55,726 bases of DNA from Candidatus Omnitrophota bacterium (lineage in GTDB: Bacteria > Omnitrophota > Gorgyraeia > Zapsychrales > Fredricksoniimonadaceae). Every line of letters begins with the position of its first letter. The stretch's first letter is position 1. The stretch covers positions 1 to 55,726 of the forward strand of contig JAKFXC010000046.1 in assembly GCA_021731625.1 (NCBI GenBank), given 5' to 3'. The position numbers were made by a program, and so were the translations under genes. Under the pieces are notes generated by a model, which had not been told where the DNA came from, did not search any database, and was given only the letters and a program-made list of their open reading frames with translations. Below, in pieces: positions 101 through 33,343 of the stretch.

Positions 101-2620
101 ATGCCCAAAAAAATTTCCCACAGTATTCTAGCGTTTATCTTTGTATTCTCATTAGAGGCGCCTGTTGCGCGGGCCACGCCGTTGCTGGGGCTTCCCGAGC
201 CCGGCAGCATGGTCTCTTTGAGTTCTGTCTACCAGCCGACCATTATTAAGGGTCTTACCATCGATGCGAACAACCCATTCTTGTTTGATTTCATTGTGGA
301 TGTCGGGCAAGACCATATCGCCGGGGAACCTTTAAAAGCAGAATCCGAAAAATTGATCAAATATTTCTTAGCGGCCCTTGCCATTCCTTCCAAAGACATT
401 TGGGTTAATCTTTCCCCCTATGAACAAGGCCGCACGGTCCCGCCGGCCCTGGCTCAAACCGATATGGGCCGTGATCTATTGGCCCAGGATTACATGCTCA
501 AGCAATTGACCGCATCGCTCATTTATCCAGAAAAGGCCATCGGCAAGAAATTTTGGGACGAGGTTTATGCGAAGGTGGGGGCACTGTATGGCTCCACCCA
601 GTTGCCGGTCAATACATTTAACAAAGTTTGGATCGTCCCGGACCGCGCGGAAGTTTTTGAACATAAGAATTCTGCCATTGTCACTGAGAGTCACTTAAAA
701 GTCATGCTGGAAGAAGATTATTTGGCGCTTCATAAGAACACAGCGGCGGGACTCTTACCGAACAAAGAAAGTCGGACCTCCCAAATCATCCGCGACGTGG
801 TCCTGCCGGAAATCGAGCAGGAAATCAATTCGGGTAAAAATTTTGCCCAGCTGCGCCAGATTGTCCACTCTATGATTTTGGCCAATTGGTATAAGAAAAG
901 ACTTAAGCAGGCCATACTCAATCAGGTTTATGCGGATCAAAGCAAAGTCAAAGGCATCGATGTGGCAGATCAAACTTTTGTGGAGAAAATTTTTGACCGG
1001 TATCTGCGCGCGTACAAAAAAGGAGTCTTCAATTACGTTAAGGAAGAACAAGGCGTTGGCGGGGGGAGGGTTCCTAAAAAATATTTTTCCGGCGGATTCA
1101 CCACAAGAGGTGGCCCGCTCGATACTGCTTTGGTATCCATCACGGACGATGTTGCTAAAGCCAGTAGGGCGATGATCGGTGCAGACAATCAGCAATTACG
1201 CATGGTCAATGCGGGATTTGAACAGGAGCCTCAAGAGACAACCCTCGATCAGGCCATGTCGGACAATGCAGATGACGAAAAGGATAAAGAAAACGGAAAA
1301 ACAACGCGCATCAATAATGGCACAACGGAAGCGACGAAGAGGAAAGGTCTGGGGGCATTATTACATTTACCTGTATGGGGGAATAAGGATTCACCGAAGA
1401 TCCCTGAGATAGTCAGTGAAAAAAAAGAAAACGTTCCACGCCCCCGGATTCACTATACCTATGAAGAGAGAGATGAGCATGGGAAAAAAAGGGTGGTAAC
1501 ACTGCGTGTGGAGCAGGAGGTTGGGAATATTAACGTCAATGGCCCGAAGGGTAGCTTTAGCATGGGAAAATCTAAGGGATTTAACTTAACTAATGTGATC
1601 GCTGGATCTGCTTTATTGTTTTCGTTGGGCACTGTGGTTTATCTGACATATCAACAATGGACTGAACTGACGTCTCAGTCTCAAAGCGGAGCCCAAGGAT
1701 TTATTCAGGCTGTGCCGGAGCCCTCCGGGAAAAATAGAACATATAAACTAGCTGAAGATTTGACCAAAGAAAGTGTGACGGCCTATATTGCAAGTGCCAA
1801 ATCTTTAAGTGAAGGAGATAAAGAGAGCCTGAAAAATTTAATTTTGTTTCCGGTCAACCCTAAAATGAGTGTCCCATCTCGTAGAGGGCAGCGTCCAGAT
1901 CTACCGATGAGCGGATGGCAGGACGCTTTAGATTTCTATTGGGCAGTGGTCGTTAGTGCAAATAATGGTTCAGAGGACGCTAAAGATCTGGCCGAGGATA
2001 TATTAGAAGGCTTAGCCGATCCCAAGCGTAAAGTTGATCCCCGATTTAAAAGGTTTTTCCGAGAAATGCGCAAGACGAGCACGCTTAAGTTAAAACGTGA
2101 TCGCGCAGCCATTGTCAAAGAAATTCTTACCAATGAATTTGGCGATCAAGCTAAGGCTATTTCGCTTCGAGACGCTGATCATGCCCTCGTGGCCAATATC
2201 CCATATTCACAAAAAGGGATTGAAATTCTTGAACAATTGAGGGTTGGGGATGATTTATATGCCTTCACGCCAAACCTAGACCCAGGCCAGATTATTGTAG
2301 AGTTCCGTATGTCGAAAATTGCAGCTTCGGTTGCGACCGTAGTTTTGGCGACTATGATAGACGCAAATAAACCGGCAGAAGTACGTAAAGACAACACCAC
2401 AGGCGGTATCGATTTACATAAGCTCGACACCGGTTTAAAGATGCGCAAAGACGGCCAAGGGGTACAGATGAGCATTGACCCGGCCATGTTGGAGCGCATC
2501 AAACGTGAAGGAATCAACAGTTTGACTCCGGTTATTTATCGCATCAGCCCCATTAGCAATATTTGGCCGGCGATCGGCATGGAACAGCCCCCGCAAAACG
2601 ATGTTCTCGCCGGGGTTTAG
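101..2620 (+). CDS. Paralog P1 of an unrecognised secreted protein family (constant N-domain, variable core with one TM-like segment, constant GGIDL C-tail).
   Basis: Track ORF 32-2620. The ATG at 101 follows GGAAGA (92-97) and gives the signal peptide MPKKISHSILAFIFVFSLEAPVARA|TP. The N-block LGLPEPGSMV..NPFLFDFIVD..WVNLSPYE..TDMGRDLLAQDY.LKQLTASLIYPE..NTFNKVWIVPD..KVMLEEDY..GKNFAQLRQI..QVYADQSKVKGID..YKKGVFNY..KYFSGG is collinear with P2-P4. The tail is GGIDLH..DPAMLERIKREGI..LTPVI. Confidence 0.9.
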   Translation: MPKKISHSILAFIFVFSLEAPVARATPLLGLPEPGSMVSLSSVYQPTIIKGLTIDANNPFLFDFIVDVGQDHIAGEPLKAESEKLIKYFLAALAIPSKDIWVNLSPYEQGRTVPPALAQTDMGRDLLAQDYMLKQLTASLIYPEKAIGKKFWDEVYAKVGALYGSTQLPVNTFNKVWIVPDRAEVFEHKNSAIVTESHLKVMLEEDYLALHKNTAAGLLPNKESRTSQIIRDVVLPEIEQEINSGKNFAQLRQIVHSMILANWYKKRLKQAILNQVYADQSKVKGIDVADQTFVEKIFDRYLRAYKKGVFNYVKEEQGVGGGRVPKKYFSGGFTTRGGPLDTALVSITDDVAKASRAMIGADNQQLRMVNAGFEQEPQETTLDQAMSDNADDEKDKENGKTTRINNGTTEATKRKGLGALLHLPVWGNKDSPKIPEIVSEKKENVPRPRIHYTYEERDEHGKKRVVTLRVEQEVGNINVNGPKGSFSMGKSKGFNLTNVIAGSALLFSLGTVVYLTYQQWTELTSQSQSGAQGFIQAVPEPSGKNRTYKLAEDLTKESVTAYIASAKSLSEGDKESLKNLILFPVNPKMSVPSRRGQRPDLPMSGWQDALDFYWAVVVSANNGSEDAKDLAEDILEGLADPKRKVDPRFKRFFREMRKTSTLKLKRDRAAIVKEILTNEFGDQAKAISLRDADHALVANIPYSQKGIEILEQLRVGDDLYAFTPNLDPGQIIVEFRMSKIAASVATVVLATMIDANKPAEVRKDNTTGGIDLHKLDTGLKMRKDGQGVQMSIDPAMLERIKREGINSLTPVIYRISPISNIWPAIGMEQPPQNDVLAGV

Positions 2621-2635
2621 CCCGATTGAAAATTC

Positions 2636-2664
2636 TTGACAACAGCGTTGGGCTTCACTATATT
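2636..2664 (+). promoter_or_regulatory. Sigma70-type promoter for glnN.
   Basis: TTGACA (2636-2641), a 17-nt spacer, then TATATT (2659-2664). A 15-nt block including the -35 (ttcttgacaacagcg, 2633-2647) is identical to the carA promoter at 33337-33351. Confidence 0.7.
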
Positions 2665-2690
2665 AGGGATATTATTTGAGGGCAAAGAAG

Positions 2691-2738
2691 TCCTCCTTGA
2701 AAACCAATGATGGTCGTTTCAAGGAGGATTTTTATTTT
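2691..2738 (+). promoter_or_regulatory. Terminator-like hairpin in the glnN 5' leader (candidate attenuator or riboregulator).
   Basis: A perfect 12-bp stem: tcctccttgaaa (2691-2702) pairs with tttcaaggagga (2717-2728) around a 14-nt loop. It is followed by tttttatttt (2729-2738). It lies about 25 nt after the predicted TSS and about 35 nt before the glnN ATG. The right arm is a perfect SD-like AAGGAGGA. Confidence 0.55.
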
Positions 2739-2771
2739 CAGTCACATCGACCATTCAATCTAGGGGGAAAT

Positions 2772-4916: not shown

Positions 4917-4920
4917 ATTT

Positions 4921-7890: not shown

Positions 7891-8608
7891 GACCCTCTCG
7901 GTCATCGTCCCGGCGTATAACGAGCAGCACACCGTCGGCCCTATTCTAGACAAAATCAAGGCCGTGGTCCTGCCCGACGGCATGTCCAAGGAAATCGTGG
8001 TGGTCAATGACGGGTCAACCGATAGGACCGTCGCCATTTTAAATCGCCGGGCCGGCGACCCGCTCATCAAGGTTTTTCACCAGGCCAATGCCGGCAAGAC
8101 CGCTGCCTTGCTGCACGGCCTCAAACAGGCCACCGGCGACATTTTTGTGGTGCAGGACGCTGATTTAGAATATGACCCCCAGCAGCTTCCGTTGCTGCTG
8201 GCGCCCATATTAAAAGGGGAGGCGCAAGTGGTTTACGGCTCCAGGTTCCTGGGGTCCATCCAAGAGATGAAACCAATCAACCGTTATGCCAATGTGATTT
8301 CTAACTGCACCTTGGGCCTGCTGTGGGGCCAGCGGCTTACGGACATTAATACATGTTATAAAATGTTTACCCGCGAAGCCGTGGCCGGCATCGACATCCA
8401 TTCCAGCCATTTTGGTTTTGATACGGAAGTGACAGTCAAATTCCTCAAAAAAGGCCTCCGCATTATAGAAATCCCCATCCGCTACAAAGCCCGCACCCGC
8501 CAGGAAGGCAAAAAGATGCGCTGGTCCACTGCCTTAAAGATGTACTGGCAGCTTATCCGCCACCGTTTTCCTCCTAATGACGCGAACGCGCAAAAGCCCC
8601 TGGCTTGA
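7883..8608 (+). CDS. Family 2 glycosyltransferase (Dpm1/DPG-synthase-like).
   Basis: SVIVPAYNE..VVVNDGSTDRT..VQDADLEYDP (DxD).. are typical of the GT2 fold. It overlaps the nadE stop by 8 nt. Its stop TGA lies inside the -35 of the P2 promoter. Confidence 0.85.
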   Translation: MNKTLSVIVPAYNEQHTVGPILDKIKAVVLPDGMSKEIVVVNDGSTDRTVAILNRRAGDPLIKVFHQANAGKTAALLHGLKQATGDIFVVQDADLEYDPQQLPLLLAPILKGEAQVVYGSRFLGSIQEMKPINRYANVISNCTLGLLWGQRLTDINTCYKMFTREAVAGIDIHSSHFGFDTEVTVKFLKKGLRIIEIPIRYKARTRQEGKKMRWSTALKMYWQLIRHRFPPNDANAQKPLA

Positions 8609-8633
8609 AATGTGTTATATTATATGGCATACT
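8605..8633 (+). promoter_or_regulatory. P2 promoter: TTGAAA-17-CATACT with an extended -10 TG. Predicts a leaderless mRNA.
   Basis: -35 TTGAAA (8605-8610), a 17-nt spacer, TG at 8625-8626, and hexamer CATACT (8628-8633). The ATG at 8641 is 8 nt past the hexamer end, with no room for an SD. Confidence 0.55.
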
Positions 8634-8640
8634 TTTCCGT

Positions 8641-11600
8641 ATGCTTGAAAAATCCTTACGCATTCTCTTAATTATTGCTCTGACCTGTACGACTTTGCCC
8701 GTCGCAAAAGTCCAGGCCCAGCCCTTGCTTGGTCTGTCCGAACCGGGAAGCATGGTCAATGTAAGCCCGGCGTTTCAGCCCCCCATCATCAAGGGCCTGA
8801 CCGTGCACAAAGACAATCCTTTCCTGTTTGATTTTATCGTCGATGTCGGGCAGGAGAAACTCTCCGGTGTGCCCTTGAAAGCCGAAAGCGAAAAGTTGAT
8901 TAAGTGCTTTTTAGCGTCGCTTGCCATCCCGGAGAAAGATTTATGGGTCAACCTTTCGCCGTATGAAAAAGACCGCACCATTCCCGAGGCCTTGAGCCAA
9001 ACCGACATGGGCCGCGACTTGCTGGCGCAGGATTATGTCCTTAAGCAACTCACGGCGTCGCTCATTTATCCCGAAAAAGAATTGGGCAAGGCCTTTTGGG
9101 ACCAAGTTTATGCCAAGGCCCAGCAAATGTATGGCAGCAGTGTCCAGCTGCCCGTCAACACGTTTAATAAAGTCTGGATCATGGCGGACAAGGCCGATGT
9201 CTTTGAACGCAATCAAACTGTATTTGTGGTCGAGGGCCATCTGAAGGTTATGCTGGAAGAGGATTACGTAGCGCTCAATAAGAACAACAAAAGCGCTACG
9301 TCCCCGAAGGGGACTACCGCCTCCCCGCAGGGGACTACTGCAAAAAATAGCAGCACCCAAATTCTGAAGGAAGTCATCCTGCCCGAGCTGGAAAAGGAAG
9401 TCAATACCGGCAAGAATTTTGCCAATCTGAGGCAGATATTCAATTCACTCATTCTGGCCAGCTGGTACAAGAAGAACCTTAAAGAGGCGCTGCTCAATCA
9501 AGTCTACGCTGATCAAAGCAAAGTCCAAGGCATTGATATTCAGGACAAGGCCGTCCAGGAACAAATCTACGAGCGCTACCTTGAGGCGTACAAGAAAGGC
9601 GTGTTTAACTACATCAAACAAGATGTGCACAACGGCCAAGCCGTGCTCAGGAAATATTTCTCCGGCGGTTTGGAAATCGCCAGAGATTTAAATCCGGCCC
9701 AAATTTCAGAGGACCAATTTAAAAAGAAATTTTCAATCGACAATGCCTTGGTCAGCGTCGCCGCAGGGGTGGACACTCAGGACACAGATGCGGCCATGGA
9801 GACTAATCCGAAGGTTATCGGTGTGACAATCGGTCGGGAAAAGTATAGGGAGGAATTCTTATCGTCGGATGTTTTATTCATGATTGGGCAAATTAAGGAC
9901 GTGGTCAATAGCACAATGTCCATCGCTCCGGAGGGGATACTTTTTCCTGAAGGCATCGAGGACCCGATGGCACACTTTAACGATATTGGGGAGAAATATG
10001 TCCAAGCGGGACACCAAGGTTGGGAATACGAAAAATTGGATGGGATTTGGATGGCTTTGGACGAGGAAATGGGCCTGACAAACGCACCGGCGGCGAAAGC
10101 AGCGGAAATTTTGCGAGATCTTGATAAAATGAAACTGAAAATTGAGAAGGACCAGCGCAAAAAGGCGATGGTCGTACAGAGACCAGATGGGATAACCGCT
10201 CTGATACCGCCCAAAGATCCCAACAAGGCCATGCTCATCAAAGAGAACCTTAAGAAGGCCTGGCCGGTGCTGCACAAGCATGGGATCTTGCTGTTCACCC
10301 AGGAAAATAACGCCGCCTTTCAATTGGATTTTGCAATGGTTGCTGCAGGCAAGAAAGTTTCGGCGTTGGCCCTCGCGCTTTGGACCCTGCTTGCGCAGGA
10401 CCCCCTGGATTTAATCCAAGTGCACACCTTGGCTGCCCAATATGGCCGGCCGCCACGAACTGTCAATTTTCTCGAGGACAATCCTGTCCCCTATTTTGAT
10501 AAGTATGGATTGGAAAGAATGGCCGCTGGGGTGGGGGAATTAATATTTGAAGACGGTCAATTGTCGCAAAGGCCAATACCATCTGAGGACAGCCGCAAAG
10601 CCGTAGAGGCGCTTTTGAAAGCCAATCGAGAAAACCAATGGACGGATGAAGAGGCACTCGCTTTTTTAAAAAGCATTGACATGTTCCATTGGGGGTCGGA
10701 CCGGCGGAAGATGATCGAAACCACGTTTGCGCAGGCAAAGCCAGAGGTTTATGCCGCATATGAACAATATCTGGGCAAAAACGAGTTCGACCGCATGGTC
10801 GCTGACCCGAATATGTATGCTCTGCACTTCCCGCAAGACGAAGTCAGGGCCCAGGCCGCTGTGGACATACTGGTCAAATACATTCCACCTAACAATGTTC
10901 CTACCCAAGAGATCATCAAACGCTTTTTGGTCGAAGAGGAATATATTGATCAGGCAGGACGCCGCAGGTCAATCATTGACGATGTGCGCGGTTTTTATGC
11001 CGATCTGGGCAACCGTCTGCACAAGGCAGAGAAGCTTAATGAATTCCCCAACATTTTAATACAACAGGAACAGGCCAAACAAAAACGATTGAGGGAGCTG
11101 CACAGCGGCAGCGATGGCTGGAAGAGGGCGGTGCAGACAGGCATCGTGCGCATCACAGACAAGGGCAACCGCATCACCTTAAGTCCGCCTGCGTCGCCGG
11201 AGCTGGAGCGATTGATGAAACAGGTGAAGGCAAGCGGCATTCCCGAAGGTGTTAGCGTCCAGTCTTCTGGCCAAGGCAGCTGGATGATCACCGGGCCTTT
11301 TAGCTCCAAGGACCGTTTGGCCATCGAGCGTCACTTGAAAAATTCCCAAGGGGCGGACACAGGCATGTTGTCGGCAGAGACCTTGGCAGTGTTACTTGTG
11401 GCGGGATACTTGGTCTTACGCTGGTCGGTGCATATTGTGGAGGGAATAGAGACGACGCAGTTTTTAATCAAGGCAGTGCAATTTTACCACAATCCGAATG
11501 AGCATTCTGAGCAACGCGCGGAGGTCATCATGGAGGCCGCTACAGAGTTTTTTGTGCACAGTTACTTCATGCGCGTTCCTCATCCCGAGACATTGGCCTT

Positions 11601-12666
11601 TTTGAATGATATCGTCGCCCGAGAAATACATTTCAGCGCCAAACTGACAGGGGTCCCTCAGGCAACCACCAGCATGGCGGTGCAGCAAATCGCCTGGAGG
11701 GTCCTTGCCCATTATCATTTGATTGGCCAATATCCGCGGTTTACGTGGTTGAAAACACAGATTTTGGCTTCCGAAGACCCTCTGATCAGCGATTATTTTA
11801 AAGCATTTGTGCGCAAGTATCGTCCCGCGACAGGAACAAATACCCTTGACACCATACGGGCCAAGTATGAGGCGATGTATCAGTTGGGAGTCTTGGATCA
11901 AAAGGAGATTTTTGACATGCTGTCATTGGTTGCGACCTCCATGGTCGGTGAACGTTTGACATTTGCCATGAACAGGGGGACGCTGATTGTCCGACTTCCA
12001 GTCTTTCAGAAATCACCTTATGTCAAAGACCTGGAAAAATTGGAACGATTGGTCCAAGCGATGCCGGCCCTGGCTTCCATTCAAATAGCCCGAGTGCACG
12101 ACCAGAGAAACCGAGATTCGCATATTCAGCTGGACTTTAACCTTATGGACACCGAACGAGGGGTGGCAAACTCGTTTGTCCTTGGCTTACTGATCATGAT
12201 TGTCAAAAATAAATTTCTGGGAGATTATTCAGCCACAAATTTGGAGATTCCGGTGCTGACGAAATTTATTCAATTTGCGAGTGTTCTTGAGACGCTTCCA
12301 GCGCAGAAGCTGGCGGATAAATTCCTTCAAATATTTCCTTTTACGGAGGATTCGGAAAGATTTTTAAATGCTCGTTGGCGCCAACGGGACCTGTCTTCGC
12401 CCTCGGGGGTATTAGAGCTGCACTTATTGCAAAGCATAATCGATAAGACCTGGTTGAACGACGCGGCTATGGACGCAGGGCCGGGCGGTATTGATTTGAA
12501 CATAGCAGCCAAGGGCCTGAATCTCCATAAAGCAGGAACCGGCGTCATCATGAATGTGGACCCTGTCATGCTTAAGCGCTACCAGCAGGAAGGCATCGAG
12601 CGCTTGTCTCCTGTGATATTTTCCGTCACTCCGGTTGCCAGCATTTGGCCCCTGCTGGGCCTGTAA
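8641..12666 (+). CDS. Paralog P2 (largest, about 1341 aa) of the unrecognised secreted family.
   Basis: Signal peptide MLEKSLRILLIIALTCTTLPVAKVQA|QP. The N-block (LGLSEPGSMV..KYFSGG) is very close to P1/P4. A variable core of about 930 aa follows. The tail is NDAAMDAGPGGIDLN..DPVMLKRYQQEGIERLSPVIFSVTPVASIWPLLGL. Confidence 0.9.
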   Translation: MLEKSLRILLIIALTCTTLPVAKVQAQPLLGLSEPGSMVNVSPAFQPPIIKGLTVHKDNPFLFDFIVDVGQEKLSGVPLKAESEKLIKCFLASLAIPEKDLWVNLSPYEKDRTIPEALSQTDMGRDLLAQDYVLKQLTASLIYPEKELGKAFWDQVYAKAQQMYGSSVQLPVNTFNKVWIMADKADVFERNQTVFVVEGHLKVMLEEDYVALNKNNKSATSPKGTTASPQGTTAKNSSTQILKEVILPELEKEVNTGKNFANLRQIFNSLILASWYKKNLKEALLNQVYADQSKVQGIDIQDKAVQEQIYERYLEAYKKGVFNYIKQDVHNGQAVLRKYFSGGLEIARDLNPAQISEDQFKKKFSIDNALVSVAAGVDTQDTDAAMETNPKVIGVTIGREKYREEFLSSDVLFMIGQIKDVVNSTMSIAPEGILFPEGIEDPMAHFNDIGEKYVQAGHQGWEYEKLDGIWMALDEEMGLTNAPAAKAAEILRDLDKMKLKIEKDQRKKAMVVQRPDGITALIPPKDPNKAMLIKENLKKAWPVLHKHGILLFTQENNAAFQLDFAMVAAGKKVSALALALWTLLAQDPLDLIQVHTLAAQYGRPPRTVNFLEDNPVPYFDKYGLERMAAGVGELIFEDGQLSQRPIPSEDSRKAVEALLKANRENQWTDEEALAFLKSIDMFHWGSDRRKMIETTFAQAKPEVYAAYEQYLGKNEFDRMVADPNMYALHFPQDEVRAQAAVDILVKYIPPNNVPTQEIIKRFLVEEEYIDQAGRRRSIIDDVRGFYADLGNRLHKAEKLNEFPNILIQQEQAKQKRLRELHSGSDGWKRAVQTGIVRITDKGNRITLSPPASPELERLMKQVKASGIPEGVSVQSSGQGSWMITGPFSSKDRLAIERHLKNSQGADTGMLSAETLAVLLVAGYLVLRWSVHIVEGIETTQFLIKAVQFYHNPNEHSEQRAEVIMEAATEFFVHSYFMRVPHPETLAFLNDIVAREIHFSAKLTGVPQATTSMAVQQIAWRVLAHYHLIGQYPRFTWLKTQILASEDPLISDYFKAFVRKYRPATGTNTLDTIRAKYEAMYQLGVLDQKEIFDMLSLVATSMVGERLTFAMNRGTLIVRLPVFQKSPYVKDLEKLERLVQAMPALASIQIARVHDQRNRDSHIQLDFNLMDTERGVANSFVLGLLIMIVKNKFLGDYSATNLEIPVLTKFIQFASVLETLPAQKLADKFLQIFPFTEDSERFLNARWRQRDLSSPSGVLELHLLQSIIDKTWLNDAAMDAGPGGIDLNIAAKGLNLHKAGTGVIMNVDPVMLKRYQQEGIERLSPVIFSVTPVASIWPLLGL

Positions 12667-12672
12667 TTTCCA

Positions 12673-12701
12673 TTGATTTTCCCTCCAAAAATATATAAAA
12701 T
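12673..12701 (+). promoter_or_regulatory. Possible sigma70-type promoter for gltBD.
   Basis: TTGATT (12673-12678), a 17-nt spacer, then TAAAAT (12696-12701). No terminator was seen between P2 and gltB, so read-through is equally possible. Confidence 0.35.
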
Positions 12702-12778
12702 GCTTTGCTCTAAAGGTGTGCGCAAAAGTCTGTAACCCACCTAAATTCAAGCGATTTGATTTCTAAAAAGAAGAATAT

Positions 12779-20744: not shown

Positions 20745-20773
20745 TTGACGACGACCGCCGTATATGGCACACT
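20745..20773 (+). promoter_or_regulatory. P3 promoter: TTGACG-17-CACACT with an extended -10 TG. Predicts a leaderless or near-leaderless mRNA.
   Basis: -35 TTGACG (20745-20750), a 17-nt spacer, TG at 20765-20766, and hexamer 20768-20773. The ATG at 20782 is 9 nt past the hexamer end. Confidence 0.55.
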
Positions 20774-20781
20774 TTACTTAT

Positions 20782-23700
20782 ATGTATATATGGCGGAACT
20801 TATATTTTCTTCTGCATAGGTTTATTCTGGTTGCCTTTTTCGCGACTTCCATGCCTATGCCTAACGTGTTGGCAGGGGAGCTTGCTCTGCCCCCGTCGAG
20901 CACTGCTCCACGAAGTGGCCCCCTTGTGGGGTCGCTGCCGGCGCCTGGCACCAGGGTCAACTTAAGCGCGGCTTTTGTTCCCGCGCATTTAACGGGAATC
21001 ACCGTCCATGCCGAAAATCCTCTGCAGTTTGATTTTCTAATACATAAAGGCGAAGGCAATTTAAGCCCGGAGCAAAAACAAGAGGAGTACACCAAACTGA
21101 TCAAGTATTTTTTGGCCTCGCTGACCGTGCCGGACCAGGACCAATGGGTCAATTTGTCTCCCTATGAAAAACAACGCATCATCAACGATAATTTTGGCAA
21201 GACCGAAATGGGCCGGGACCTTTTAGGCCAGGATTATTTGTTAAAGCAAATCACCTCATCGCTTATGTACCCGGAGTCTGGCTTGGGAAAATCTTTTTGG
21301 GACAAAGTTTATGCCAAATCCTACCAAAAGTACGGGCATACCAATATTCCGGTCAATACGTTTAACAAGGTGTGGATTGTGCCGGATGAAGCAGCGGTGT
21401 ATGAAAGCGGCAATACCGTTTACGTGTTAAAAAGTCATTTTCGGGTGATGTTAGAGGAGGACTACATCGCGAAAGCAACACTGCACACATCACCGCATAC
21501 CCTGGCAGGGCCATCTGCCCAAGTTGTGAGAGAAGTGATTCTCCCTGAGATTGAAAGGGAAGTCAATGAAGGCAAAAACTTTGCCCCCTTGCGCCAGGTT
21601 GTCAGTGGGATGATTTTAGCTGCCTGGTATAAAAAAGCCCTAAAAGAAACCCTGCTGGGCAAGGTCTACGCGGACCAAGCCAAAGTCAAAGGGGTGGACC
21701 AAGACCCCAAAACCAATGAGCGGATCTATCAAAACTACCTCGCTGCTTTTAAAAAAGGCGTATACAACTACATCAAGGAAGATTTTGACAAATACAGCAA
21801 ACAGGTCATCCCCAGAAAATATTTCGCGGGAGGATTTGTCGGCAGGGCAGTGGGCGAGGTCATGACGCGCTTCAATGACGAGAATCAACCCAGCCGGGCC
21901 ATGACCGCGGCGGTGGAGAACGACTTTGCCCAAGATTCTATTGAAAACGTTGAGGCCGTATTTGAAGGTTTTGCTGCCACACCGCTCTCCTTAAACCTGT
22001 TCCATAGTAGGACGTGGGAGCAATCTAAGCAGCGCATACAGTCTTTGATTAATGGCAACAATCGCAATCAAAACAGCATAAAGGCATACAAAGAATTCGA
22101 CGTGTTTTTAAAAAGAGGTGATTTTAAAGGGGCGGTGGCCTATTACGAAGCTGCCACGGACCCCTTGTTTAAGGCCTCTGAACCTATACGGGCTTATTAT
22201 GATTTGTCCCTGAATCGGCTGCTGTATTTAAAAATAAATCCCCGCAACGACGAGGACAGAAAATCAGACCCAATAAATCCTCTAGAGCAAATCAGAAAAA
22301 ATTCAAAGGACGTATATACAGAACGAGATTATCCGGATTTATCCGTAGGGCTTCCCACGGCCACAAAAAATTTAGGTGTTTTGGCCATTGAATTGCTGGT
22401 CTTAATGAGCAAATCCGAGAGAACGCAGGAGGAGAATGGGCGGATTAATTATCTTCGGGAATTGTTTCCAAAATATTTGCCGGAAGTGGATTTGAACTCC
22501 GATGACTTGCTGGAAACTTTGGAAGCGACGGCCATTAAATATTTGCAAGAATCGACCCAAGGATATATTAAGGCCTTTAAACAACTGCCACTTAATGATT
22601 ATCCCGGAAGCAATATTGTGCGCAATTTGGTTTATCGGCCCACGGAACTTATGCCTCAGGCCATACAATGGGCCAGGCTGGTGCGCCAAGTGTCCTTACG
22701 TTCAAATCCGCATGATTTTTGGACGCGGGCGAATCTATTAGAAACGGCCATTGTTTTATCGGACGACCGGAGTCCGGTTAGAGTGCAAGCCCAAAAGGAA
22801 TTTGAGGCGAGGCTAAATGATTTGGTCTCAACAGTGCGCAGGAAAGAGGCGTTTAGCCAGCCGGATTTAGAATCCTTGATGGACCATTTAGAGCGATGGG
22901 ATAAACTAAATCAAATGCGTGGAATAGAGAACAGCAGACTAAAAACAGCCATTGATCAACTAAAGGAAGCTCGGCGATGGCAAGGGCCAATTCCCGAGGC
23001 TGCGGAGTTAGAGGGGATGGCGTATCTAGAAGACCATATCTATAGCTTAAATCGTTATCGTTTGTTGGGGGTATTTCCGCAAAATATGGCCAAAGCGGGC
23101 ATTATTCCGGATATTGTCAGGAATTACGCCGACCAGATGCTGATTCGCTATTTTATGAGAAATTATAAAGACAACGGCGTGGGGCTCATGGATATGGGGG
23201 ACGAACAGGCCATCAAAGCCATTCTCGACTATGTTGAAACAAGGTTTGGATTGGTGGACCCGGGAACAAGAAAAAGGATCATGGAGGATCCCAATGGTCC
23301 CGCGCATCGAAAATTTGATGAACGAGCGAAAGCAGCGCCAAAGGTATTTGGAGTCAATGGTTCGGGGAATTCGGACACAAACTTAATGACCTTGCTGGCA
23401 TTAGGGTTAGGAGATTGCCGGGTGGCCAATTTTGTTTTTTCATCCTTGGTCCAGGGGTATTTTAAATACCGCGATGTCATGAACAATATATATCCTTTAA
23501 TTGCCATGATAGAACGCGGCCCCGAGGCTGCAGGAGTTTTTCATGCACAATTGGATGGACTGAATGGGAAATACCGGGAGTTTGATATCATGCAAGGTTA
23601 TATTCAGGGGAATTTGCAAAAGGAAGGATATGGTTTAAGAATAAATAAAGAGCAACAGCGGCCCGTGTTAGGGAACAAAGAATTAGGAGGAGAAGATTCA

Positions 23701-24339
23701 CGGCTGGAGAGCCATACTTTAACAGCTGAGATGAAACGCGATAATGACGGAAGAATTTTTAAAATCATTTTAAAAGATATTTGGTATAAGGATCGATACA
23801 ATTTACGAGACGTGGAAATTGATATCACGGATGAAGTATTAGAGAATTTGAAAAACGAAGGATTTCTCATCCCAACACCGGTGAAGGCATATGATGAGGA
23901 AAAGAGGGAACAAGTTGAAATTTATGTTCATTTTAAATTGGCGCCGTATTCGCAATACACGGGTAAACTTGCTGCCGAGACTGATGCCAATCAAGTTCAT
24001 TTTTATGGCAACATTGTAGATGAGACTGGTTTATATGCTTTGCTTGTGGATTCCGAAGCTTCCGAAACATGGAGAGGATCGGTTTTCGAATTGCTGGATA
24101 AATATATTGCAGCGGGTCAAGGTAATGCAGCGATGATTGGCACTGAGACGACCGGAGGTATCGATTTAAACGCCGCTAATTTGACGAATTTCCAAATCAA
24201 ACGCGACGGCAAAGGTGTGATCTTACCGCTGCGGGAACAAGACCTGGCCCAGTTCGGCCAGGTGCCGGGTTTTATTCCTCGGATCATTGAAATCCGGCCC
24301 GCCGCCAGGAGCAAGGTGCCATTCTTAAACATTAAGTAG
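20782..24339 (+). CDS. Paralog P3 (most divergent member). Its variable core carries a transglutaminase-like Cys/His/Asp signature.
   Basis: The N-block LPAPGTRVNLS..NPLQFDFLI..WVNLSPYEKQR..TEMGRDLLGQDYLLKQITSSLMYPE..NTFNKVWIVPD..RVMLEEDY..GKNFAPLRQV..KVYADQAKVKGVD..FKKGVYNYIKE..RKYFAGG is collinear with P1/P2/P4. The tail is NAAMIGTETTGGIDLN... The start is uncertain (ATG 20764 or 20782). Confidence 0.88.
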   Translation: MYIWRNLYFLLHRFILVAFFATSMPMPNVLAGELALPPSSTAPRSGPLVGSLPAPGTRVNLSAAFVPAHLTGITVHAENPLQFDFLIHKGEGNLSPEQKQEEYTKLIKYFLASLTVPDQDQWVNLSPYEKQRIINDNFGKTEMGRDLLGQDYLLKQITSSLMYPESGLGKSFWDKVYAKSYQKYGHTNIPVNTFNKVWIVPDEAAVYESGNTVYVLKSHFRVMLEEDYIAKATLHTSPHTLAGPSAQVVREVILPEIEREVNEGKNFAPLRQVVSGMILAAWYKKALKETLLGKVYADQAKVKGVDQDPKTNERIYQNYLAAFKKGVYNYIKEDFDKYSKQVIPRKYFAGGFVGRAVGEVMTRFNDENQPSRAMTAAVENDFAQDSIENVEAVFEGFAATPLSLNLFHSRTWEQSKQRIQSLINGNNRNQNSIKAYKEFDVFLKRGDFKGAVAYYEAATDPLFKASEPIRAYYDLSLNRLLYLKINPRNDEDRKSDPINPLEQIRKNSKDVYTERDYPDLSVGLPTATKNLGVLAIELLVLMSKSERTQEENGRINYLRELFPKYLPEVDLNSDDLLETLEATAIKYLQESTQGYIKAFKQLPLNDYPGSNIVRNLVYRPTELMPQAIQWARLVRQVSLRSNPHDFWTRANLLETAIVLSDDRSPVRVQAQKEFEARLNDLVSTVRRKEAFSQPDLESLMDHLERWDKLNQMRGIENSRLKTAIDQLKEARRWQGPIPEAAELEGMAYLEDHIYSLNRYRLLGVFPQNMAKAGIIPDIVRNYADQMLIRYFMRNYKDNGVGLMDMGDEQAIKAILDYVETRFGLVDPGTRKRIMEDPNGPAHRKFDERAKAAPKVFGVNGSGNSDTNLMTLLALGLGDCRVANFVFSSLVQGYFKYRDVMNNIYPLIAMIERGPEAAGVFHAQLDGLNGKYREFDIMQGYIQGNLQKEGYGLRINKEQQRPVLGNKELGGEDSRLESHTLTAEMKRDNDGRIFKIILKDIWYKDRYNLRDVEIDITDEVLENLKNEGFLIPTPVKAYDEEKREQVEIYVHFKLAPYSQYTGKLAAETDANQVHFYGNIVDETGLYALLVDSEASETWRGSVFELLDKYIAAGQGNAAMIGTETTGGIDLNAANLTNFQIKRDGKGVILPLREQDLAQFGQVPGFIPRIIEIRPAARSKVPFLNIK

Positions 24340-24472: not shown

Positions 24473-25999
24473 GTGATTTTTCTTCTTGTCCTCCCGGTTT
24501 TACTGCTCTATTACCCTTCCCAGGCCCATGCCGCGGCTGTGGTTCAGCAGCAGCAACAAATCCAGGCCCAGCAGGAAGCGGCCTATCAGCAAGCCTATCA
24601 GCAAGCCATCGCCGAGAAACAGGCCGCGGAAATGCAGGCCTATCAGCAGGCGGTGGCCGAATACCAAGCCCAGGCCGTCCAATATCAGGCCGCCCAGATG
24701 GAAGCGGCCCGCCAGTACCTCGCCCAGCAGCAAGCCCAGGCGTTAATCGCCCAGCAAATGGCCCAAGTCATGCAGCAAAGACAAATGGAGGAAGTGCAGT
24801 TAAACATGCTCAAGCAGGCGGTGGAGCAGGCCCTGGCCCAGCAAATTGCCGTGCAGATCCAGCAGAAAGCCGCGGTGGAAATTCAGCAGGGCATGGTGAT
24901 GCAGGCCGTGCAGCAAGCGGTGGGGCAATTGGGCATGCAGGCCTATGTCAACGAAGCGATGCAGCAGCAGGTCGCGGCCCGCATGATGGTCGAAACCCAA
25001 GCCATCGCGGCCCAATACCAGGCCGCACAACTTCAGGCTGCCCGTGAATACATCATGCAGCAGCAGGTGCAGGCGGTGGTGGTCGCGGAAGTGGCCAAGT
25101 TTATGCAACAACAGCAGATTTCCGCCGTGCAGCAGGGTGTTTTGCAGCAAGCGGTGGGCGAGATTTTAATCCGACAAGTGGCGGGTCAAATTCAAAACAA
25201 GACCGCCGTGCAAATCCAGCAGCAAATGATTCAAAATGCCGTTAGTGAGGCCGCCGCCCGCATGGGTTTGGCCGCGGCCCAGAATGCCGCGCTGCAAAAA
25301 CGCGTCGGCGCGCAATATCAGGCGGCGCAAATGCAAGCCGCCTATCAATTCCTCGCCCAGCAACAAATGCGGGACCAGATTGCCGCCGGGGTCAACCAAT
25401 ATGCTCAACAGCTCAATGTGCAAGGGGCGCAAAAGGAAATGCTCAGCAAAGCTGCTGAGGGGATTTTAGCTAATCAAGTGGCGGCGCAAATACAAGCTAA
25501 CCAGATCGCCCAAATTCAAGGGGTCATGATCGCCCGCGCGGTTGCCGAAGCGGCGCAAATTTTAGGGATGCAGCAAGCCATGGCCGAAAGCCAGGCCGCC
25601 GGGGTGCTGGCCGCCGGCGCCAAGGCCCGCGACCAGGCTCTGGGTGATGACGTGCGCGAGATCGTCGACATTTCGCAAGTCTGGAAAAAACTTGAGAGCA
25701 GCAGCAAAGCGTGGGGCTTGTTGATTGACAACCAAGCCAAGGTCATGACGGTCAATGAATTTATTGAACGCTGGCGCAAACAAGGCGTCAAGATCCGCAA
25801 ACCCGGCTCCGTATATGCGCAAATGATCGATGACATGACGTCCCAAAGCCCGGACGCCCTGGCCAATCCTTTTCCTCAAATCATGCAGATGATTGCGGTG
25901 ATGGAATACGATTTTGACAACGGCATGGACCGCGACAAGTTGGCCCGCCAAATTTTAGGGCCTTCCTACGAAAACAATAAACGGCGTTTAGGCAGATAA
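24473..25999 (+). CDS. Secreted Gln/Ala-rich repeat protein with a non-repetitive C-terminal domain.
   Basis: Hydrophobic N-terminus ..LLVLPVLLLYYPSQAHA|AAVV. About 390 aa dominated by Q and A follow, with three degenerate units of about 100-113 aa, each opening (A)QYQAAQ(M/L)(E/Q)AA(R/Y)(Q/E)(Y/F) (near nt 24680, 25020, 25310). A normal-composition C-domain of about 115 aa ends the protein. The stop overlaps the glpK ATG (TAATG). Confidence 0.75.
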   Translation: MIFLLVLPVLLLYYPSQAHAAAVVQQQQQIQAQQEAAYQQAYQQAIAEKQAAEMQAYQQAVAEYQAQAVQYQAAQMEAARQYLAQQQAQALIAQQMAQVMQQRQMEEVQLNMLKQAVEQALAQQIAVQIQQKAAVEIQQGMVMQAVQQAVGQLGMQAYVNEAMQQQVAARMMVETQAIAAQYQAAQLQAAREYIMQQQVQAVVVAEVAKFMQQQQISAVQQGVLQQAVGEILIRQVAGQIQNKTAVQIQQQMIQNAVSEAAARMGLAAAQNAALQKRVGAQYQAAQMQAAYQFLAQQQMRDQIAAGVNQYAQQLNVQGAQKEMLSKAAEGILANQVAAQIQANQIAQIQGVMIARAVAEAAQILGMQQAMAESQAAGVLAAGAKARDQALGDDVREIVDISQVWKKLESSSKAWGLLIDNQAKVMTVNEFIERWRKQGVKIRKPGSVYAQMIDDMTSQSPDALANPFPQIMQMIAVMEYDFDNGMDRDKLARQILGPSYENNKRRLGR

Positions 26000-30124: not shown

Positions 30125-30172
30125 CGGACCGTTTCTAGATAACCCATTGGGGCACAGGAGGTTCTGGCAGAA

Positions 30173-30352
30173 GTGTCCCTGCCTTTAACCAAAGTAATCA
30201 GGTTTGACCGCCCGATCAGTTGGAATTCTAACAGGTTTATCGCTCATAGAAATGGCGAAGTTGTTGCCCGCTATGACTCCAAGATTGGACCGCAAGACCC
30301 TCAGCTAGTGGAAAAGTTAGAACAAGTCATCGTCGAGCTTTTGGATAAACGG
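30173..30352 (+). pseudogene. Probable remnant of a glutathione peroxidase C-terminus (about 50 aa), fused in-frame by chance to the P4 ORF.
   Basis: ..ISWNSNRFIAHRNGEVVARYDSKIGPQDPQLVEKLEQVIVELL resembles the Gpx C-terminus (..I.WNF.KFL..R.G.V..R..P...P.......I..LL). There is no upstream Gpx sequence, since ridA ends at 30124 and stops lie in between. Confidence 0.35.
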
Positions 30353-30388
30353 TGCCAAAAACGTCCCCAAAACGTGCCAATGCCGTCC

Positions 30389-30417: not shown

Positions 30418-30424
30418 TTCATCA

Positions 30425-33343
30425 ATGTGCCGCAGCCTAGTTTTCGCCCTCATTTTTGCCTTTTTCCTAAACGTCATCGCGCCTATTCCCCAGGCGCAGG
30501 CCCAGCCGTTGCTCGGCCTGCCTGAGCCGGGAGCTATGCTCACGTTAAGCCAGGCCTTTGCCCCGCCGATCATCCGGGGGCTGACCGTCCACAAAGACAA
30601 TCCATTCCTGTTTGACTTTATCGTCGATCCCGGCCAGGACCAGCTGTCCGGACCAGCACTCCAAACAGAGGGCGAGAAGCTCATCAAATATTTCTTGGCC
30701 TCGCTAGCATTACCGGAAAAAGACCTTTGGGTCAACCTCTCGCCTTACGAGCAGAATCGCACCATTCCGGAAGCTTTAGGACAGACCGACCTCGGGCGCG
30801 ACCTGTTGGCGCAAGATTACATTTTAAAGCAATTGACCGCTTCATTGATCTACCCGGAAAAAGAATTAGGCAAAAAATTTTGGGACAAGATTTATAGCCA
30901 GGCGCAATCGCTCGCAGGCAGCAGCCAGGTCTCCCTTTCGGGGACTGCTGCGCTGCCGCCGGTCAATACTTTTAATAAAGTGTGGATTGTGGCGGACAAG
31001 GCCGAAGTCTTTGAACGCAACCAAACAGTGTTTGTGATTGGCAGTCACCTGAAAGTCATGCTGGAAGAAGATTACTGGGCGGCGCAAAAACAAGGAAGTC
31101 CGGCGGAGAAGACCCAGGCGGCCAAAATTCTGCGCGACGTCATTGTCCCGGCCATCGAACACGAGGTCAACACCGGAAAACATTTCGCGCCGTTGCGTCA
31201 AATTTTCAATTCTATCATTCTGGCCGGCTGGTATAAGAAAAATCTCAAAGCGGCCCTGCTTAACCAAGTGTACACCGATCAATCCAAAATCAAGGGCATC
31301 GCGCTTACCGACGCCAGCATAAAAAAGCAAATTTACGAGCGTTATCTTCAGGCCTACAAAAAGGGTGTGTTTAATTACATTAAGGAGGGGCCGCCGGCAG
31401 CGGGTAAAGACGCACGCACACCCAGAAAATATTTCTCCGGCGGGATCACCGGCCAGATTCAGGAGTATCTGCCTGCAACGCAGGCAGTGTTTTATAGCAC
31501 CTTGCCACGGGATCGCGCTATGTCCGTCTTGAAAACCCAGCTTAATGATCCTGGGATAAGCCCTTTGATGAGCCCTTTAGCAGCAGATTATGTGGGCGGG
31601 CCGAACGCAGAGATTCTGGAAGCAAAGATCCTGAAGAAAGTCAAAGAATTGAATCGCCAGCCAAGCAGCGTATTTATGGTTTTTAGTGATGTACCGATAC
31701 CAGCAACCGATGAAGATTTGCAGGCCATCAGCGCCCGGGCGAGAAAAATCTTGGCAGAACATCATTTGGGGTCGATGCGCGCAGAATTCAGGCGTATGCC
31801 GCGCTTTCCAGGGGCCGTGCCGGCCCCGACATCAGCAAAACCTCCAGCGCCGCAAGCAAACGCGGCCCCCAATGGCCTCGATTTTATCGGCATGGAGGCG
31901 GAGGCCATGAGAAAACCCGATAGGGCATTTAGATTAACTTCAAGGGAATCGAAGGCAATAGACAAGCTGGTATCCCGCCAGTTCAATGATGAAAATTTAA
32001 GGGAAGCCATCCGGGACATGCTTGAGAGCAGGATCGATAAAAATAGTCCCATAGATTTGGGGGATGATGACGGGCAAAGAATAGAGTTTCCAGAGCAGAA
32101 CAGGATAATTTTAATCAATTCCATTAAGATTTACATGCGCTCTAAGCCGGGGCAGAGGGGTCAGCACCAACCTGTTGTAACAATGCAAGATGTATTGGAT
32201 ATCATAGATCAACAGGCGGAACATTTGAAAAAATATCACATAAGAAAGTACAGCCGCAATCAGTGGGACAAAGTTATAAAGGAAGCCAAGGAAATGTTTA
32301 GAGAGGAATTGGGCTCCAGTAAAGCCATGGTCGCGGTAACTCGGGAAGACAAAAAAAAGCTCATCCAGGGCATGGAAGTCAAAAAATTGGCCAAAGGTAA
32401 TGGAACCCACACGCCCCCCAGAAAACGTATTAAGACCCCGATCTCTATTGTCATGGAAGATCAAAGTCTTGAGCAAGGGCAGATCTATTTGGTTCCCAGT
32501 GCCAATGGAAAAGAAGGGGTTTTATGGGTCCAATTCGAGGGAGAGACTCTCAGGTTACTGGACATTGAACAGCTGGGGTTGACGGATATTTACATATACG
32601 GAGCGGTGGTGATCATCCATAGTCAGTCGGCCGGCACCGTAGGTTTCAGCAAATTAATTTTTACGGGCCCTGAACCTTACTTGCATTCTATCGCGGGCGA
32701 TGACTTGATTGAGGTTCTAGAAATTAATCGTTTAGCCCCTATTGATGGGGATATGTTGGAGCATGGGGTGATTAATCGAAGCTATACACTGAGCACCGAT
32801 AAAAATACCGTAAGTATGCGGTATTCTACCGTCGTGGCAAGCTTGGAGAAATTGATGGGCAAACTAGCGGGGCTTTCCACATCTGAACCCGCATTCAAAA
32901 TGCCCGAAGATCTCTATACCATTTTAGAGTTAAGAGAGTCTGATGTCACAATGGAACGTGTGGGGAATGTCGTCCAATTAAGATTACTTCCGGAGTTAAG
33001 CGACCAGCAATGGACGACGATTGAACTGAAACTGCAAGCCATCCATGACGTGTTTGGCCTCAACACAAAAATAGATAAAACGAAACGAGAAATAAGCGTC
33101 GAAGCAACAATAAGTCCTGCCATGACGGCTGTGGACGGCGGTATTGATTTGCAAGCCGCCACGGCAAAGACCGTAGTCCAAAAGCAAGGCAGCGGCGTGG
33201 ATATGGCGATCGATCCGGCCATGCTGGAGCGGGTCCGGGCCCAAGGCCTCGAAACACTGGTCCCTAAAGTGCTTAGCATCGTCCCTTTGACTCCGGCTCA
33301 AATTGGGGCTCTCGTGGGACCGGTCGCCCCCCATTTTTCTTGA
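30425..33343 (+). CDS. Paralog P4 of the unrecognised secreted family.
   Basis: Signal peptide MCRSLVFALIFAFFLNVIAPIPQAQA|QP. The N-block (LGLPEPGAMLTLS..PRKYFSGG) is close to P1/P2. A variable core of about 560 aa follows. The tail is ISPAMTAVDGGIDLQ..DPAMLERVRAQGLETLVPKVLSIVP... The stop TGA lies inside the carA -35 box. Confidence 0.88.
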   Translation: MCRSLVFALIFAFFLNVIAPIPQAQAQPLLGLPEPGAMLTLSQAFAPPIIRGLTVHKDNPFLFDFIVDPGQDQLSGPALQTEGEKLIKYFLASLALPEKDLWVNLSPYEQNRTIPEALGQTDLGRDLLAQDYILKQLTASLIYPEKELGKKFWDKIYSQAQSLAGSSQVSLSGTAALPPVNTFNKVWIVADKAEVFERNQTVFVIGSHLKVMLEEDYWAAQKQGSPAEKTQAAKILRDVIVPAIEHEVNTGKHFAPLRQIFNSIILAGWYKKNLKAALLNQVYTDQSKIKGIALTDASIKKQIYERYLQAYKKGVFNYIKEGPPAAGKDARTPRKYFSGGITGQIQEYLPATQAVFYSTLPRDRAMSVLKTQLNDPGISPLMSPLAADYVGGPNAEILEAKILKKVKELNRQPSSVFMVFSDVPIPATDEDLQAISARARKILAEHHLGSMRAEFRRMPRFPGAVPAPTSAKPPAPQANAAPNGLDFIGMEAEAMRKPDRAFRLTSRESKAIDKLVSRQFNDENLREAIRDMLESRIDKNSPIDLGDDDGQRIEFPEQNRIILINSIKIYMRSKPGQRGQHQPVVTMQDVLDIIDQQAEHLKKYHIRKYSRNQWDKVIKEAKEMFREELGSSKAMVAVTREDKKKLIQGMEVKKLAKGNGTHTPPRKRIKTPISIVMEDQSLEQGQIYLVPSANGKEGVLWVQFEGETLRLLDIEQLGLTDIYIYGAVVIIHSQSAGTVGFSKLIFTGPEPYLHSIAGDDLIEVLEINRLAPIDGDMLEHGVINRSYTLSTDKNTVSMRYSTVVASLEKLMGKLAGLSTSEPAFKMPEDLYTILELRESDVTMERVGNVVQLRLLPELSDQQWTTIELKLQAIHDVFGLNTKIDKTKREISVEATISPAMTAVDGGIDLQAATAKTVVQKQGSGVDMAIDPAMLERVRAQGLETLVPKVLSIVPLTPAQIGALVGPVAPHFS

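Follow-up and report, generated by a model that had tools for sequence, protein, structure and literature searches.

Four paralogous genes with constant ends

The window analysed here, 55,726 nt in length, comprises positions 1 to 55,726 of contig JAKFXC010000046.1 from the Candidatus Omnitrophota assembly GCA_021731625.1. It contains four genes, here named P1 to P4, whose products carry the same N-terminal domain and the same C-terminal tail around unrelated cores. A preliminary description of this DNA had proposed four such open reading frames (ORFs), each beginning with a cleavable-looking signal peptide. All four are present on the + strand with the proposed starts and stops: P1 at 101-2620 (839 amino acids, aa), P2 at 8641-12666 (1341 aa), P3 at 20782-24339 (1185 aa) and P4 at 30425-33343 (972 aa). 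The signal peptides are borne out as well, since in a rule-based judgement all four N-termini have a basic n-region, an h-region of 12-18 residues and an AxA-type site. They occupy positions 101-175 in P1, 8641-8718 in P2 and 30425-30502 in P4, and P3 has a signal-peptide-like N-terminus at about 20782-20874.

The signal peptide is followed by an N-domain of about 310 aa in each protein, located at 176-1096 (P1), 8719-9672 (P2), 20935-21837 (P3) and 30503-31447 (P4). The shared block is collinear in all four from LGLPEPG to KYF(S/A)GG, with 132 of 330 alignment columns invariant. P3 is 53-57% identical to the others, close to the half that had been estimated by eye, whereas the estimate of three-quarters for P1, P2 and P4 was slightly high, their mutual identity being 64-73%. 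The variable cores extend over 1097-2395, 9673-12459, 21838-24126 and 31448-33115 in P1 to P4, respectively.

Each protein ends in a tail of about 70 aa that aligns across the four and has the family consensus GGIDL...G.GV...P.I..I.P...LLGL; within P1-P4, GGIDL, G.GV and two of the prolines do not vary. The presence of this tail in all four had been described correctly, but the start coordinates proposed for P1 and P4 were one base out of frame, and the tails lie at 2396-2617 in P1 (GGIDL at 2402), 12460-12663 in P2, 24127-24336 in P3 and 33116-33340 in P4. The P3 tail is of a variant flavour (GKGVILPLREQDL...), and P3 diverges most among the four, in its N-domain as well as in its tail. The P1 tail ends in ...LAGV. 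A subset of tails (P1, at 2606-2617, and those of P0121, P0129, L001 and L009 from elsewhere in the family) terminates in ...LAG(V/L) about 10 residues past a WPLxGL motif, and this terminus may be an extra C-terminal signal.

The alignment of the N-blocks of the four window proteins was also used for codon comparison. Nucleotide identity is 59-70%, identity at third codon positions is 40-47%, and the same codon is used for just 45-52% of identical residues. Because both third-position identity and codon sharing are this low, P1-P4 are old paralogs whose ends are under purifying selection and are not a product of mis-assembly. The scrambled synonymous sites on which the preliminary description had based the same conclusion, including the codons quoted for GGIDL, are therefore real.

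Public gene calls place the starts of two of the genes at upstream TTG/GTG codons (8605-8640 for P2, 30173-30424 for P4). The call for P2 begins at 8605 (1353 aa, P0238) and adds 12 residues to the N-terminus; that for P4 begins at 30173 (1056 aa, P0274) and adds 84. Since the signal peptide comes to lie inside the protein through these extensions, a topology prediction that starts from the public calls would miss the export signal.

A phylum-wide family and its two conserved domains

A profile search with the N-domain, in which 8,000 candidates were scored, identified at least 1,434 clusters. None is functionally named, and the named sources are mostly 'Candidatus Omnitrophota/Omnitrophica'. 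The P1-P4 N-domains match the family hidden Markov model at E values of 1e-100 or better and are 50-66% identical to their homologues, with N-domain identity across the phylum ranging from 42 to 95%. The signature of the domain in the family is LxLPxPG ... WVNLSPYE ... KYFSGG. When one genome per GTDB species was scanned, tblastn confirmed more than 508 N-domain loci. By their record titles alone, the best 80 comprise 53 from Omnitrophota, 26 from 'uncultured Planctomycetales' metagenome-assembled genomes and one from a 'bacterium'. Multiple loci occur per genome and some are in tandem, with three copies each at loci L023 and L045.

The tail required an exhaustive profile search, as a word-indexed search gave just 12 short fragments. 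This returned 4,784 representative clusters at E <= 1e-3, of which 1,202 remained at E <= 1e-10. Each of the 150 best matches has its tail no more than about 30 residues from the C-terminus, in agreement with its proposed nature as a terminal module. The shortest members measure about 400 aa, and the longest ORFs have not closed by 3,700 aa. From these searches the family appears to be confined to Candidatus Omnitrophota, with P1-P4 as small members of a very large, unnamed and phylum-wide family. Its export signal is widely kept, a hydrophobic segment preceding the N-domain in 95 of 97 members and an AxA-type site following that segment in 85 of 97.

The two ends are tightly coupled. Nearly all of the 3'-complete N-domain ORFs in the 80 loci also carry the tail, and 64 of 91 tail-bearing representatives of at least 450 aa have the N-domain. 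Among the other 27, the tail-only cases that were traced include one cut by a contig end and one that represents the 3' part of a gene split by a frameshift, with the N-domain just upstream. The tail was considered as an independent, widespread signal and rejected as such, the traced tail-only cases being fragments with one genuine exception, a protein encoded at L082:18461-20938. Elsewhere at that locus (10001-13752) a family gene ends after its N-domain beside IS66 transposase genes, and the tail-only gene just named lies 7 kb downstream of it.

Pairwise divergence of the N-domain is correlated with that of the tail (Mantel r = 0.46, a value reached in 0 of 2,000 permutations), which may reflect co-inheritance, co-evolution or both. 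Such coupling could also arise if the tail docked into the N-domain of the next, or the same, molecule, building chains or lattices of passengers in the envelope as a non-covalent alternative to one giant protein. The near-constant co-occurrence of the two modules and their correlated divergence would fit, as would the existence of several tail flavours per genome with matching N-domain divergence, as in P3 compared with P1, P2 and P4. However, simple co-inheritance predicts the same correlation and the tail structure was not confident in the AlphaFold run, so that head-to-tail assembly seems to us quite improbable.

Neither conserved module could be related to a known one. Searches of the four full-length proteins against Pfam and NCBIfam gave nothing at E <= 1 beyond chance-level matches, and PDB sequences gave no match either with the single proteins or with profiles built from 124 N-domains and 14 tails. 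The P1 N-domain was modelled with AlphaFold2 from an alignment of 124 sequences, at a mean predicted local distance difference test (pLDDT) of 77 and a predicted template modelling score of 0.76, residues 10-295 being mostly at 70-97. The model consists of two beta-hairpins packed on long helices, followed by a disordered linker (pLDDT below 50). The same N-domain was repeated in the model of P0120, a minimal natural member of 533 aa. A Foldseek search of the N-domain model against the PDB found nothing significant (best match 4phq, E = 0.22, template modelling score 0.12-0.13), and one against the viral structures of BFVD found no match; resemblances to ClyA, SmhA and colicin Ia were insignificant (E >= 0.22, template modelling score about 0.12). 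A full-text literature search for 'GGIDL' returned nothing relevant. Searches of the kind that the preliminary description had suggested as a check, here in Pfam, NCBIfam, PDB sequences and folds, thus matched no characterised family, and its view of the proteins as unrecognised stands. By these comparisons of sequences and models, the N-domain and the tail appear to be two domain families new in both sequence and fold.

Variable cores, the xAM motif and the genomic setting

The cores were compared in a set of 63, consisting of those of P1-P4 and 59 from other family members. BLASTP showed no similarity among the window cores or between them and the 59, and jackhmmer searches with them against about 300 family members returned self-matches only, so the two methods agree with the earlier statement that the cores do not align. 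Across the set, 49 of the 63 match no other core. No relatives of the P2 core were found in metagenome contigs.

Cargo was identified by Pfam scans of 55 cores from other loci, of two very long members, and of an independent sample of 48 N-domain-plus-tail representatives. Among the 55 cores the enzymes were phosphoglycerate kinase (PGK; 1e-107), PEPCK, enolase, class V FBPase, glutamate and alanine dehydrogenases, TIM, DeoC aldolase, phosphoglucomutase, PPDK and UDPGP; the other domains were response-regulator receivers, HD/HDOD domains, methyltransferases, PP2C and HEAT repeats. One very long member carries a suite of PPTase, AMP-binding, acyltransferase, MaoC, HpcH and enoyl-CoA hydratase domains, and another carries arrays of WD40 propellers. 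At most 13 of the 48-member sample have any Pfam domain, these being RNA polymerase alpha C-terminal domain (four), adenylate kinase (two), aminotransferase, receiver, inositol monophosphatase and NUDIX. About four in five family cores are orphans, as are those of the window, and the cargo that can be recognised is without exception of cytoplasm type.

Three loci have a PGK embedded between N-domain and tail together with an enolase, HMGL-like or UDPGP-like domain (L019 4181-12637, L032 726-8915 and L044 3527-9226). Among themselves the fused PGK domains share 42-43% identity, and in a search they returned only ordinary PGKs of 390-410 aa, from which they differ at roughly three positions in five (about 40% identity). 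They keep 66 of 78 universally invariant columns; with 12 of these residues lost, their activity is uncertain.

This inventory bears on the preliminary suggestion of an adhesin or polymorphic effector; read in that way, the proteins would be surface adhesins or toxins with cores as binding or toxic moieties diversified by conflict. The signal peptide, the hypervariable orphan cores, the several paralogs per genome and the ultra-small, host-dependent nature of the organisms would all suit such a role. However, the 55 + 48 + 7 members scanned yielded no domain of the adhesin, lectin, Ig-like, toxin or secreted hydrolase type, the variable part is internal and does not form the C-terminal tip, and no immunity-like gene recurs downstream. 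With the recognisable cores being cytoplasm-type enzymes and regulators, and with neither immunity-like nor secretion neighbours recurring, that suggestion is not upheld and we consider it very improbable.

A short, family-specific motif punctuates the cores. [DN]xAM occurs 127 times in the 63 cores, compared with 13.6 +/- 3.7 in shuffled cores, and its density of 2.13 per 1,000 aa is about 11-fold that in 343 neighbouring non-family ORFs (0.19, the chance level). It lies within 80 residues after the N-domain in 38 of the 63 cores and is repeated within long ones; xAM follows the N-domain in 39 of 61 members and stands just before GGIDL in 27 of 61. At locus L019 a [DN]xAM separates the PGK domain, which ends at 1707, from the enolase domain, which begins at 1732, and the consensus of the independent 48-member sample has DxAM at both boundaries. 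In the window, xAM is found 19-39 residues past KYF(S/A)GG in all four proteins and 4-6 residues before GGIDL in P2-P4. P1 has SRAM 22 residues past KYFSGG, in the disordered linker (1163-1174), and a second motif, DQAM, at 1247-1258. P2 has DAAM 39 residues past KYFSGG (9787-9798) and again 4 residues before GGIDL (12460-12471, GGIDL at 12484). In P3 the motifs are SRAM, 19 residues past KYFAGG (21892-21903), and NAAM, 6 residues before GGIDL (24124-24135, GGIDL at 24154), and in P4 they are DRAM, 22 residues past KYFSGG (31511-31522), and SPAM, 4 residues before GGIDL (33113-33124, GGIDL at 33137). We regard the xAM motifs as putative module boundaries and candidate processing sites.

Two of the window cores contain a hydrophobic segment resembling a transmembrane helix, located at 1595-1651 in P1 (VIAGSALLFSLGTVVYLTY, score 1.70 in a 19-aa Kyte-Doolittle window) and, by hydrophobicity, at 11383-11439 in P2; the P3 and P4 cores have none. 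Were the P1 and P2 segments truly helical, the four tails would not all be found on one side of the membrane.

The four genes also share a promoter-like motif. The 15-nt pattern TATATGGYAYMCTTT, searched in the whole window with at most 2 mismatches, has 4 matches where 0.35 are expected, each lying 5-29 nt upstream of one of the P1-P4 start codons; exact copies were not found in 85 loci from other genomes. The motif reads as an extended -10 promoter element. Its P1 copy, TATATGGTATCCTTA (57-71, +), is of the type TGn + YAYMCT, and the P2 copy, TATATGGCATACTTT (8621-8635, +), which ends 5 nt before the ATG, has a -35 TTGAAA at 8605 and was scored in a sigma-70 scan as TTGAAA-17-CATACT with TG upstream. 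The remaining pattern matches are TATATGGCACACTTT, 6 nt before the P3 ATG (20761-20775, +), and TATATGGTATCCTTT, 5 nt before that of P4 (30405-30419, +). The spacing of the motif to the ATG suggests that the P2-P4 mRNAs may be leaderless. Strong sigma-70-like promoters are predicted after P1, P2 and P4, and a terminator with a 12-bp stem after P3, by which P1-P4 look like separate transcription units. A GC-rich palindrome, AAATAGGGGGCTGGCCCCTATTT, occurs twice just past P3 (24367-24391 and 24427-24455) with a terminator score on both strands.

P1-P4 are set among genes for nitrogen assimilation and glutamine-dependent synthesis. A co-oriented 42-kb run (2676-41640, +) consists mainly of genes for enzymes that make or use glutamine, namely GS-III, a class I GATase, NadE, GltB/GltD, CarA/CarB, PurF and PyrG, and a second glutamate-synthase-like gene is found on the minus strand at 49291-50880. 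Such clustering of nitrogen-assimilation genes is unusual. The genes downstream of P1-P4 are GS-III, GltB, an ORF of no known kind and CarA. P1-P4 were considered as adaptors for the adjacent glutamine-dependent enzymes. They have their own promoter-like motifs with separate promoters or a terminator downstream, and 69 immediate neighbours of family genes elsewhere belong to 133 different Pfam families; because of this separate transcription and the heterogeneous neighbours elsewhere, the adaptor idea was dropped. One other locus, L085, is a second nitrogen-metabolism neighbourhood resembling that of the window, with a frameshift-broken family gene at 1377-6568 (possibly on a long-read contig) beside GAF-ANTAR, ammonium transporter and P-II genes.

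Several other features of the window were recorded. The ORF at 24473-25999 (508 aa) has no Pfam match and contains three Q-rich repeats (QYQAAQMEAARQYLAQQQ-like) at 24680, 25013 and 25313, about 300-330 nt apart. An SPFH/Band-7 gene (34537-35346) stands between carA and carB, with start and stop codons that overlap or abut. The sole RNA gene detected in the window is a tRNA-Leu(GAG) at 41678-41761, between pyrG and rpe. On the minus strand, a signalling cluster at 42491-46147 comprises a GGDEF response regulator, a histidine kinase with a GAF domain and a protein with a FIST domain, adjoined by a CorA transporter.

A possible sorting pathway and its relation to known systems

We favour, at a probability of roughly 0.45, the reading that the P1-P4 family is a phylum-specific two-part sorting and handling cassette for Sec-exported cargo, which is possibly processed at xAM. 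P1-P4 would be independently transcribed, each with a cleavable Sec signal peptide, and by the sequence rules the protein would leave the cytoplasm via Sec. The mature protein would then consist of an alpha/beta N-domain, a disordered linker with (D/N/S)xAM, an interchangeable core, often a second xAM, and a C-terminal domain of about 70 aa. Because the end modules are strongly conserved in comparison with the free-running cores, both ends are probably read by something conserved. The N-domain and tail could be the two halves of a cassette recognised by conserved, phylum-specific machinery, which would anchor the protein in the envelope or move it onward across the envelope. The core would be a passenger, almost any protein, with xAM marking its boundaries. 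Export, the sorting role, cleavage and the destination, whether periplasm, cell surface or prey cell, are what we infer. What the analysis shows directly is the architecture with its conservation and taxonomic range, the linked ends, the diverse cores, the enriched motif and the private promoters.

A number of observations weigh against this sorting cassette. The main difficulty is that the recognisable cargo requires ATP, NAD(P)H, CoA or phosphorelay partners, and domains that depend on ATP, NAD, CoA or a phosphorelay make little sense outside the cytoplasm, where they are unexpected. A transmembrane helix in the core that returned the cargo to the cytoplasm was considered and rejected, as only 18 of the 63 cores have a transmembrane-like segment (Kyte-Doolittle, 19-aa window); the cargo would therefore usually stay with the N-domain on one side of the membrane. 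The exception at L082:18461-20938 is an 825-aa tail-bearing protein with three xAM motifs and with neither signal peptide nor N-domain, from which it follows that the tail may act without export. No secretion, protease, chaperone or immunity-like neighbour recurs among the 69 immediate neighbours. Signal peptides were judged by simple rules and not by a trained predictor such as SignalP, cleavage at xAM is inferred only, and the tail of P0120 was modelled at a pLDDT of only 46-74, from a tail alignment five sequences deep.

The same contradiction between export and enzyme content is met in the literature on the giant proteins of Omnitrophota, both in the description of the Archaeovorins (West-Roberts et al. 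2023, bioRxiv 10.1101/2023.11.21.568195) and in a catalogue of long proteins (2026, bioRxiv 10.64898/2026.06.07.730766), in both of which the predicted extracellular sites for such domains are said to look implausible too. It could be avoided if the proteins were membrane-tethered cytoplasmic scaffolds, with a hydrophobic N-terminal helix that is not cleaved and does not carry the rest of the protein out, and with N-domain and tail mediating assembly or oligomerisation, by which the cores (enzymes, regulators and orphan adaptors) would be arranged in membrane-proximal metabolic assemblies, as short counterparts of the giant multi-enzyme proteins. The wholly cytoplasm-type cargo, the signal-less protein at L082 and the location of family genes within housekeeping operons would all be accommodated. 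However, the N-termini obey the rules for signal peptides and not those for anchors, with an h-region of 12-18 residues, basic residues before it and the AxA-type site found in 85 of 97, and an uncleaved helix with positive charges on its N-side would still put the remainder outside. A scaffold is in our judgement rather unlikely.

Among known proteins, biologically closest to the family are the multi-domain proteins of Omnitrophota, long or giant, that bear signal peptides. According to the two preprints, the signal peptide at their N-terminus gives way to 'regions that lack identifiable domains' (10.1101/2023.11.21.568195; 10.64898/2026.06.07.730766). They share with the present family the phylum, the signal peptides, the cytoplasm-type enzymes, the HEAT and WD40 repeats and the response regulators. 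N-domain ORFs beyond 3,700 aa carry acyl-CoA-type enzyme suites or WD40 arrays, and the content classes given in the catalogue (10.64898/2026.06.07.730766) match the two very long N-domain members. P1-P4 differ in being only 839-1,341 aa long and in having no Pfam domain, whereas the published classes rest on size and domain content. Archaeovorins differ in other ways as well, their genes exceeding 90 kb (proteins over 30,000 aa) and containing glycosyltransferase, methyltransferase, glycoside hydrolase, peptidase and NUDIX domains, compared with no Pfam domain at E <= 1 in P1-P4 but one chance-level match. In the text searched, the papers on long and giant Omnitrophota proteins contain no description of the N-domain, the GGIDL tail or the xAM motif.

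Outside the phylum, several systems bear a partial likeness. Type IX secretion system (T9SS) cargo of Bacteroidota combines a Sec signal peptide and a conserved C-terminal domain of 70-100 aa with diverse passengers and many paralogs per genome, and these traits recur here. However, such cargo has no constant N-domain and its passengers are extracellular enzymes and adhesins, whereas P1-P4 have a constant N-domain, match no T9SS C-terminal domain model in Pfam or NCBIfam and belong to another phylum. Sortase, exosortase and rhombosortase signals (LPXTG, PEP-CTERM, GlyGly-CTERM) are likewise short conserved C-terminal elements on unrelated exported proteins of one lineage. They consist of a motif, a transmembrane helix and a basic tail, unlike the GGIDL tail, which is a 70-residue non-membrane module that contains neither a hydrophobic stretch of 19 residues nor basic residues at its end. 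Autotransporters (type V) differ in that P1-P4 have no beta-barrel Pfam match, the N-domain is modelled as helices with two hairpins and the tail spans just 70 aa. Polymorphic toxins (Rhs, CDI) differ because the variable part of P1-P4 is internal, with no adjacent immunity gene and heterogeneous genes downstream. As for ClyA-like alpha-pore-forming toxins, the best PDB match of the N-domain in Foldseek is the insignificant 4phq hit given above.

MARTX toxins are similar in design. Their conserved ends flank variable effector modules that are freed by cleavage at inter-module linkers, so that constant ends, central modules and a logic of processing between modules are common to both. They also have glycine-rich (A/B/C) repeats, a cysteine protease domain, type I secretion and no N-terminal signal peptide; P1-P4, by contrast, have a signal peptide, none of the MARTX Pfam domains and no sequence or fold similarity. 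The family could be a delivery platform of this kind for effectors directed at prey or host, its constant ends carrying the protein from a predator across the target membrane and its modules being freed at xAM once within the prey, which would supply ATP and metabolites. Besides the constant ends, the modular middles and the short punctuating motif, this would make sense of a Sec signal on cytoplasm-only cargo, and microsporidia are known to secrete hexokinase into host cells. The preprints also report a predatory epibiotic lifestyle for Omnitrophota (10.1101/2023.11.21.568195; 10.64898/2026.06.07.730766). However, the Pfam scan of P1-P4 and the survey of the 69 neighbours turned up neither a protease domain nor pore-forming repeats nor a linked secretion system, and the likeness of the N-domain to ClyA, SmhA and colicin Ia is insignificant. 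In addition, predation has not been demonstrated for many Omnitrophota lineages and the activity of the fused PGKs is uncertain, all of which makes a delivery platform clearly unlikely.

The family fails every defining feature of MARTX toxins, T9SS cargo, sortase-type signals, autotransporters, polymorphic toxins and ClyA-like folds. Its members would be modular exported proteins with constant delivery modules, a known logic, and are built from two new domain families. Extending the sorting cassette to its destination, we suggest only tentatively that there may be a phylum-specific sorting pathway in which the N-domain and the GGIDL tail form a two-part address and xAM provides the processing sites. 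By this pathway cytoplasm-type enzymes and regulators, in proteins from 400 aa to giant size, would be placed outside the cytoplasmic membrane, either in a metabolically active envelope compartment or in an attached prey cell, with P1-P4 as ordinary small clients.

The two domain families, having no relative in Pfam, NCBIfam or the PDB and including one with a confidently modelled orphan fold, merit description in themselves. There is also a practical consequence for annotation, in that the starts of P2 and P4 in public gene calls lie too far upstream, which conceals their signal peptides. What the present analysis adds to the preliminary description is the phylum-wide range, the very long members, the punctuation by xAM and the promoter motif common to the four genes.

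Omnitrophota are widespread, ultra-small and partly predatory bacteria with the longest predicted proteins in biology. The family sharpens the paradox of a Sec signal ahead of ATP-, CoA- and phosphorelay-dependent domains. Its modules and boundary motif single out thousands of client proteins, small and large, and predict concrete cleavage sites that can be sought in existing proteomes. The N-domain, the tail and the boundary motif are the first sequence handles on the destination of the long proteins of Omnitrophota and on their possible cleavage.

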